Positions 40,548 to 41,966 of a DNA stretch of 64,000 nt are shown here, piece after piece. The stretch's first letter is position 1; each line of letters starts with the position of its first letter. The notes under the pieces are model-generated. The model worked only from the letters and a program-made list of their open reading frames with translations. It was not told the origin of the DNA and searched no databases. Source of the stretch: Bacteroidia bacterium (GTDB lineage Bacteria; Bacteroidota; Bacteroidia; JADZBD01); assembly GCA_020054095.1 (NCBI GenBank), contig JAGVMA010000025.1:18321-82320 (forward strand), in the 5' to 3' direction. A program made the translations under genes and the position numbers.

Positions 40548-41966
40548 ATGCTTTTTAATTAAATTCAGTTTTTATTTTTTTTTCCAATAGTAACAGCGCT
40601 ATATTTCCTGTTACCACACAAATTTAGATGGCTTGTGTTGCTTAGCGCAAGTTGTATTTTTTACATGTACTTTATTCCTTCATATATATTAATACTGTTT
40701 TTTACGATTATGATTGATTATTATGCAGGTATATTTATTGAGAAGTCTGAAGGTAAAAAAGAAAAAAAAACATATTTAGCTCTGAGTGTTATTGCGAACA
40801 TTGGAATATTGTTTTTTTTTAAGTATTACAACTTTTTTATTGATAATGTAAACATGTTTTTTTACGCCTTAGGTAATGAGCAAGTGCTGCCATATATCGA
40901 GATAATTTTACCTGTTGGTTTGTCGTTTCACACATTTCAAGCAATGAGTTATACAATAGAGGTATACAATGGAAATCAAAAAGCAGAGAAACATTTTGGA
41001 TACTATGCATTATATGTAATGTTTTATCCACAATTAGTAGCGGGCCCTATTGAACGGCCGCAAAATATTTTACATCAATTTCACCAACCCAAAATTTTTA
41101 GTTATGAATGCTTAATTAGAGGATTGCGTATTATGCTTTGGGGTCTCTTTAAAAAAGTGGTCGTAGCAGATTCATTCGCAATTATTGTTAATCAGTCATA
41201 TTCTGATATACAAAGTCAAAATGGGTGGGAGCTGCTTTTGGCATCTTATTTTTTTTCATTTCAGATATATTGCGATTTTTCGGGTTACACCGATATTGCA
41301 ATTGGTTCGGCCAAATGTATGGGTTACGATTTAATGAAAAATTTTGAGGCCCCTTATTTATCGGCATCCATATCAGAATTCTGGAGCAAATGGCACATAT
41401 CACTATCAACTTGGTTTAGAGATTACGTCTATATACCTCTGGGTGGTAACAAGGTGAGCAAATCAAAATGGATACGCAACATAATAATCGTATTTCTAAT
41501 AAGTGGCATGTGGCATGGTGCAAAGTACACCTTCTTGATATGGGGGATAATTCATTCTATTTACATAGTCATAGAAATTATAATTGCGCCCATTCTATCT
41601 AGTATAGAAAAAAAAATCAATTACAAGTGGGTGTACAAAGCATTTAAAGTAATGATTGTTTTTCATGCGGTAACACTTGCATGGATTTTTTTCAGAGCAA
41701 ACAACACAAATAATGCTATCATGATTTTAAAAAAAATATTTACTTCTCTTTTTTATAATACATCGGGAGTACAGTCAGTCCTTACAAATATTTCTTTCAA
41801 TACTTTTATAGTTATTATTTTATCATTATTGCTAGTTATTATCAAGAAAACAGTTCCTATACCTTTAAAACACAAATACAGTTATATATATTTCATTGGC
41901 CTTTTAATGTTAATTATTGTACTTGGTAAAACCGACCACGAACAGTTTATATATTTTCAATTTTAA
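40548..41966 (+). CDS. MBOAT-family membrane O-acyltransferase (AlgI/DltB-like), interrupted by in-frame TAA at codon 5 (40560..40562). Track ORF restarts at GTG 40635
   Basis: Reading ATG 40548: MLFN*IQFLFFFPIVTALYFLLPHKFRWLVLLSASCIFY... matches the conserved MBOAT N-terminus. Catalytic His region SFHTFQAMSY. Upstream TAtaTTTG -7 box at 40512..40519. Confidence 0.65.

Follow-up and report, generated by a model that had tools for sequence, protein, structure and literature searches.

Interrupted MBOAT acyltransferase and GT4 glycosyltransferase genes in an O-antigen-like cluster of a Bacteroidia bacterium

An O-acyltransferase gene that stops at its fifth codon raises the question of where that stop belongs: in the organism, as a genuine inactivating mutation; in the deposited sequence, as an error; or in front of a start codon that the cell actually uses. 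The gene lies in a 64,000-nucleotide stretch of a Bacteroidia bacterium contig (JAGVMA010000025.1, assembly GCA_020054095.1), here called the window, to which positions refer unless another contig is named. Read directly, the window has an ATG at 40548-40550 followed by CTT TTT AAT and then by TAA at 40560-40562, which is codon 5; past the stop the same frame continues ATT CAG TTT TTA TTT TTT TTT CCA ATA GTA and stays open until the stop codon at 41964-41966. If intact, this AlgI-like MBOAT O-acyltransferase gene (40548..41966, + strand) would have 472 codons, but it is broken at codon 5, and an uninterrupted frame from the MLFNS N-terminus through the first transmembrane segment (TM1) is absent from the window. 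An in-frame TAG (40545-40547) abuts the ATG on its 5' side and leaves no room for a start further upstream. By hydropathy, TM1 spans roughly residues 6-23, and a basic loop, HKFRW, comes after it. A run of nine T (40575..40583, + strand), 12 nt past the TAA, encodes the conserved FFF of TM1. Past the stop, the frame first offers a canonical start at a GTG, codon V30 (40635..40637, + strand). This GTG opens a 443-aa open reading frame, and its product would be short of residues 1-29, which comprise TM1 and the HKFRW loop. Other in-frame starts follow at TTG 40638, at ATG 40665 and at an ATG that is codon M55 (40710..40712, + strand), where the recorded 418-aa protein of NCBI, JGI and Logan (P0001) begins. 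The window thus reads as the preliminary description had it: a TAA at codon 5 between MLFN and an in-frame TM1, nine T at 40575-40583, 12 nt further on, and a reading frame that resumes only at GTG 40635, without TM1.

The identification of the product as an MBOAT protein of the AlgI/DltB type, made earlier from the translation, holds: the Pfam MBOAT family (PF03062) matches residues 146-372 with 91 bits, where the cut-off is 27. W322, H323 and G324 are invariant in the ortholog alignment and present in the window (within SGMWHGA), and H128 and D243 are also invariant. The nearest homologs are at most 58% identical, full-length proteins of 466-489 aa that begin MLFNS..F..FFP.V and end FIYFQF; termini of the form M[LV]F[NS]S...F and ...FIYFQF are common to the window MBOAT and AlgI. 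Across 114 aligned orthologs (the intact version of the gene plus 113 homologs) residues L2, F3, N4, S5, F8, F11, V15, F20, R27 and W28 are invariant, and M1 is nearly so. The conserved MLFNxIQFL-type N-terminus recognised at the outset is therefore well founded and, because S5 is invariant in all 114, codon 5 should encode serine. Judged by this alignment, the stop breaks a conserved N-terminus rather than preceding a true start. Orthologs that begin naturally at a downstream GTG or Met, which the preliminary description had raised as an objection to its own reading, were looked for and none was found; the entries of 454 aa that appear short come from full-length genes whose start was called at another codon (P0030 compared with P0007), so that objection fails. 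The only solved homologs are DltB structures (6BUG, 8JEM; E ~2e-28), and these align to residues 123-383 only.

Directly downstream is a gene for a 302-aa, membrane-anchored, DUF1574-like protein with an SGNH fold (41967..42875, + strand), whose ATG abuts the MBOAT stop codon. This partner has nothing significant in Pfam or NCBIfam, and a three-sequence profile found no significant match in the PDB. Its fold is nevertheless legible in 81 homologs, in which GSSH at 67-70, N89/G91/S93 and D278xxH281 are invariant and correspond to the SGNH blocks, with an invariant Ser/Asp/His triad of S68, D278 and H281. The AF2 model has a pLDDT of 96 and an N-terminal helix (residues 2-25) that is predicted to be the anchor, and a Foldseek search with this model returned DltD as the top match, together with PatB and GDSL esterases (all three at E ~1e-5), and also OatA-C. 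Homologs of the partner carry PF07611 (DUF1574) or PF27429; DUF1574 is a family of the SGNH clan with no known function (PMC9487903). The NCBI record of the partner, at 267 aa, is 35 residues short. The MBOAT-partner pair is also found in Chitinophaga alhagiae (L088) and in a metagenome-assembled genome (L089), where the partner homologs (7449-8420 in L088, 9221-10141 in L089) again lie directly 3' of an AlgI-like MBOAT gene. Because the DUF1574-like gene stands in this position in O-antigen clusters every time (window, L088 and L089), its context suggests a role for this SGNH family as a glycan O-acyltransferase.

An MBOAT protein with an extracytoplasmic SGNH partner is the architecture of the AlgI/AlgJ-AlgX, PatA/PatB and DltB/DltD systems (PMC9487903). 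As with AlgI and AlgJ/AlgX, which O-acetylate alginate in Pseudomonas aeruginosa, the window has an MBOAT gene with an adjacent SGNH-fold gene (PMC9487903). As with PatA/PatB, which O-acetylate peptidoglycan in Neisseria gonorrhoeae, the MBOAT and SGNH genes form an adjacent pair, and PatB itself is among the structural matches of the partner. Unlike either, the module in the window is part of a Wzx/Wzy O-antigen-like cluster that includes wbuXYZ-like genes, and its MBOAT gene is broken. It differs further from AlgI systems in that the partner is DUF1574-like and belongs to neither the AlgX nor the DUF459 family, and in that no AlgF-like gene was recognised. The DltB/DltD pair of Firmicutes, which D-alanylates teichoic acid, resembles the module in supplying the only solved MBOAT homologs (DltB) and the top structural match of the partner (DltD). 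In contrast to that pair, however, the window MBOAT reaches only 156 bits with the DltB equivalog TIGR04091, below its cut-off of 375, its neighbours are O-antigen genes, its N-terminal block is AlgI-like, and the organism is a Gram-negative member of the Bacteroidota; a scan of genes from 35.9 to 55.3 kb recognised neither dltA nor dltC.

By gene content, the surrounding locus (37681..50156) is a Wzx/Wzy-dependent O-antigen-like cluster. In order, it encodes an initiating polyprenyl-phosphate sugar transferase, a PseC/DegT-type aminotransferase, a GT2 glycosyltransferase, the MBOAT protein and its SGNH partner, followed by Wzy, a GT4 glycosyltransferase, WbuZ/WbuY/WbuX-like proteins (a HisF-like, a HisH-like and a WbuX-like amidotransferase), Wzx and a 405-aa protein of unknown function. 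L089 has the same order from MBOAT and partner through Wzy, GT4, HisF, HisH, WbuX and Wzx to a 409-aa protein; there the MBOAT gene is intact (ATG CTA TTT AAT TCG...), as is the GT4 gene (368 aa). The HisF-, HisH- and WbuX-like N-acetyl-sugar amidotransferase genes (45183-47685, - strand) occur as a trio in L088 and L089 as well, and going by the predicted functions such a trio indicates an acetamidino sugar in the glycan. In the window (50236-52061, - strand) and in L089 (3384-5231) alike, the glycan cluster is flanked by a LemA/TPM/TPM trio.

The decisive comparison is with a sibling from an independent assembly. A Logan contig of 5,921 bp (L001, run SRR13608704) corresponds to window positions 40511-46430 and is identical to it at 5,919 of 5,921 bp, the two differing at exactly two sites, 40561 and a T run at 44879-81. 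At 40561, the middle base of the premature stop, the window has A and the sibling has C, giving TCA (Ser5) and an unbroken 472-aa MBOAT; TCA or TTA had been guessed as the original codon, and TCA is what this near-identical contig contains. Further Logan contigs, of runs SRR13608704 and SRR13608725, extend the comparison to 29.8 kb, L001 included. They show no differences over 19173-25930 (seen in two runs) and one each over 1941-12286 (7079, an intergenic G→A), 38069-39643 (39425, A19T in the DegT protein) and 46594-51773 (51404, A18E in a TPM-domain protein). Including L001 there are 5 differences in 29.8 kb (~99.98% identity, a density of ~1.7e-4 per base). With the further contigs so close to 100% identical, both sources, as far as these stretches represent them, hold the same strain or population.

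The direction of these differences is one-sided. In all four substitutions a G/C of the sibling has become A/T in the window, the three in coding sequence include no synonymous change, and at each of the three changes that could be polarised the derived allele is that of the window: the stop at codon 5 (S5*) by reference to the invariant serine of the orthologs, a frameshift in the GT4 gene by reference to intact orthologs, and A18E by reference to the alanine of the L089 ortholog. Such a pattern fits a single clone set against a population consensus, and equally fits errors confined to one assembly. Differences are not significantly enriched in the glycan cluster, which has 3 of the 5 in 7.5 of the 29.8 kb where 1.26 would be expected (P ~0.13, by our own Poisson estimate).

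The protein records show where the lesions lie. For the 137,782-bp contig, the proteins at NCBI and JGI correspond to the broken forms, with an MBOAT of 418 aa and a GT4 recorded as two separate proteins of 105 aa and 234 aa. The deposited assembly thus has the lesions, and an artificial change planted in the window is rejected as their source. The recorded 418-aa MBOAT is carried by two contigs, the 137,782-bp one and L001, and exact-sequence look-ups found the intact 472-aa protein called nowhere in the protein collection. Scans for the exact pattern of the start region, its variable base left open as N, had no matches among GTDB species representatives; among JGI metagenome contigs there were none for the start-region pattern and none for a pattern spanning the GT4 indel. 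With no matches in either set, the Logan contigs are the only sibling evidence. Run SRR13608704 is named in no paper that we found; its series neighbour SRR13608742 is a long-read soil metagenome, which does not establish the nature of SRR13608704 itself. As to the organism, its ArgS was at most 57% identical to any of the 600 candidate stretches compared, from a longer list, and its placement is in the Bacteroidota/Bacteroidia and no finer.

The second difference from L001 falls in the GT4 gene (44078..45186, - strand), 4.3 kb from the premature MBOAT stop and in the same cluster. The window has three T at 44879-44881 on the + strand where L001 has four, so that on the coding strand A4 has become A3, and the loss of this one base splits the gene into the pieces of 105 aa and 234 aa. 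That the GT4 gene of this locus is broken too had been noticed beforehand, and the cause can now be given as a 1-nt deletion relative to L001. The intact 369-aa form is found only in L001, and the syntenic ortholog has 368 aa; on this comparison, the pair of short proteins is a single frameshifted gene. Two hits within one cluster are only weakly non-random (~0.04 to 0.2, depending on how the estimate is conditioned).

Taken together, it seems to us fairly probable that the window records a private, very recent TCA→TAA knockout in an O-antigen-like cluster, with a second hit in GT4. In the mechanism that we envisage, the C→A change at 40561 would have turned the invariant Ser5 codon TCA into TAA, and translation from the native ATG would end after four residues, MLFN. 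Restart at GTG 40635 (V30) would lose TM1, and restart at ATG 40710 (M55) would lose both TM1 and TM2; as such products would be without TM1 (or TM1 and TM2) and without ten invariant residues, the enzyme is most likely dead. By analogy with the characterised systems, the MBOAT protein would bring an acyl group, which is probably acetyl, to the far side of the inner membrane for the SGNH partner to place on the glycan. The partner gene, its start abutting the MBOAT stop, would probably be under-expressed as well, through lost translational coupling and possibly polarity. Since GT4 is also broken, the consequence probably extends beyond acylation to loss or alteration of the whole glycan, and we infer that the strain as sequenced probably makes no native acylated surface glycan. 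Either lesion would be expected to relax selection on the other. It is important to note that a rate of five changes in 30 kb would put several hundred in the genome as a whole, a high number for divergence in the laboratory, and this counts against a recent knockout.

Of the three outcomes that the preliminary description left side by side (inactivation, translational restart or read error), inactivation is thus the one we favour, read error is its main rival, and restart finds no positive support. The rival holds that all five differences, the TAA and the GT4 deletion included, are errors of the deposit, brought about by template damage, by amplification in a single-cell or low-input library or by an unpolished consensus, and that the organism itself is intact. 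A good deal speaks for it. The sibling contig has intact, consensus-like genes at both sites; the four G/C→A/T substitutions split evenly between the deamination and the 8-oxoG types; the single indel is in a homopolymer; the lack of synonymous changes among the three coding substitutions is as errors would have it; and the density of differences fits a noisy consensus. On the other hand, the NCBI and JGI records of the 137,782-bp contig share the broken sequence, so that an error would have to sit in the assembly itself; substitutions outnumber indels by 4 to 1, the reverse of what long-read consensus error gives; ordinary Illumina isolate assemblies are far less error-prone; and a real clone, measured against the consensus of a population, would be expected to show the same asymmetry of changes. 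On balance we consider an error of the deposit unlikely, though well short of negligible.

That the stop is real and the gene nonetheless works is very improbable. Here the enzyme would remain active, or be regulated, through reinitiation at ATT 40563, GTG 40635, TTG 40638 or the ATG codons at 40665 and 40710, or else through read-through of the TAA. Canonical in-frame starts are indeed available past the stop (the GTG/TTG pair at 40635/40638, ATG 40665 and ATG 40710), and gene callers have accepted the 418-aa product; every one of these starts, however, drops TM1 and the ten residues that are invariant in 114 orthologs, and, as described above, no ortholog begins downstream of its own accord. 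TAA is the least leaky of the stop codons, which argues against read-through, and the plain serine codon of the sibling means that the stop is no conserved regulatory feature. A knockout of this sort is an ordinary kind of event, and nothing suggests recoding or a new mechanism.

Least credible of all is a programmed on/off switch, by phase variation through the tract of nine T or by a reversible change at a palindrome, for although surface-glycan genes are often phase-variable, a T9 run lies just past the stop and the mutation completes a 10-bp palindrome, the tract has the same length in L001, merely encodes the conserved FFF and lies 3' of a lesion that is itself a substitution, no start in either of the other frames reads through to it unbroken, as slippage would require, and the palindrome falls short of significance once multiple testing is allowed for.

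The palindrome merits a brief description. The C→A change makes a perfect 10-bp palindrome, TTTAATTAAA (40554..40563), which includes a PacI site; its counterpart in the sibling is the imperfect TTTAATTCAA. In the window, 1.6% of the possible G/C→A/T changes would make a palindrome of at least 10 bp, and the chance of at least one among the four substitutions tested is ~6%, which is not significant; the arms, moreover, are short. From the sequence of the site, a quasi-palindrome template switch may have been the origin of the C→A change, and it is tempting to speculate that this change might arise repeatedly by template switching from TTTAATTCAA to TTTAATTAAA.

If the knockout is real, it invites comparison with the rough variants of other bacteria. 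Loss-of-function point mutations in O-antigen and capsule clusters are known from cultured or phage-exposed strains, such as rough variants and E. coli K-12 with its disrupted wbbL. The lesions described here resemble those of rough variants in being private nonsense and frameshift changes in glycosyltransferase or modification genes that relatives have intact, and in that several hits per cluster are possible. Unlike rough variants, they are known at the level of the sequence. A further reading, which we regard as distinctly doubtful, is that the intact allele (as in SRR13608704) and the knocked-out alleles coexist in one natural population, where glycan-loss haplotypes would be standing variation under pressure from phages or grazers.

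The 418-aa 'DltB/MBOAT' protein that NCBI, JGI and Logan record comes from a broken gene and is truncated, and the annotation of two genes is hereby corrected. Loss of the surface glycan would matter for phage, adhesion, gliding or serology work with the strain. The comparison also illustrates that suspicious stop codons can be polarised with independent public assemblies.

The spacer between the divergent GT2 and MBOAT genes (40491-40547, 57 nt) contains two opposed copies of TATATTTG, a Bacteroidota-type -7-like box. One copy, identified as a motif match only, is on the + strand at 40502..40509, 39 nt 5' of the MBOAT ATG; the second is on the - strand at 40522..40529, 32 nt 5' of the GT2 start at 40490. 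The preliminary description had credited the MBOAT gene with a good promoter and had put its -7 box at 40512..40519, a placement that is wrong by 10 nt. A box on the + strand does exist in the spacer, but across the whole window the motif TAnnTTTG shows no enrichment (76 matches, where shuffles gave an expectation of 111) and is thus weak promoter evidence. Two correctly oriented boxes in a spacer of 57 nt fit putative back-to-back promoters of the Bacteroidota type, an arrangement for which their position and orientation are suggestive.

Three other features of the window and its genome may be recorded here. A 963-aa protein (57988-60879, + strand) has similarity to adenine methyltransferases of the PglX/Alw26I type and is possibly a type IIG or BREX-like enzyme; its reading frame begins with a TTG just 3' of rpsF-rpsR-rplI, which lie on the opposite strand. 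Two paralogous OmpA-like outer-membrane proteins of the PorE/CHU_0125 family are encoded at 3917-6034 (- strand) and 30617-32878 (+ strand), both scoring below the equivalog cut-offs. The genome, with a GC content of 36%, has gliding and T9SS-type genes.
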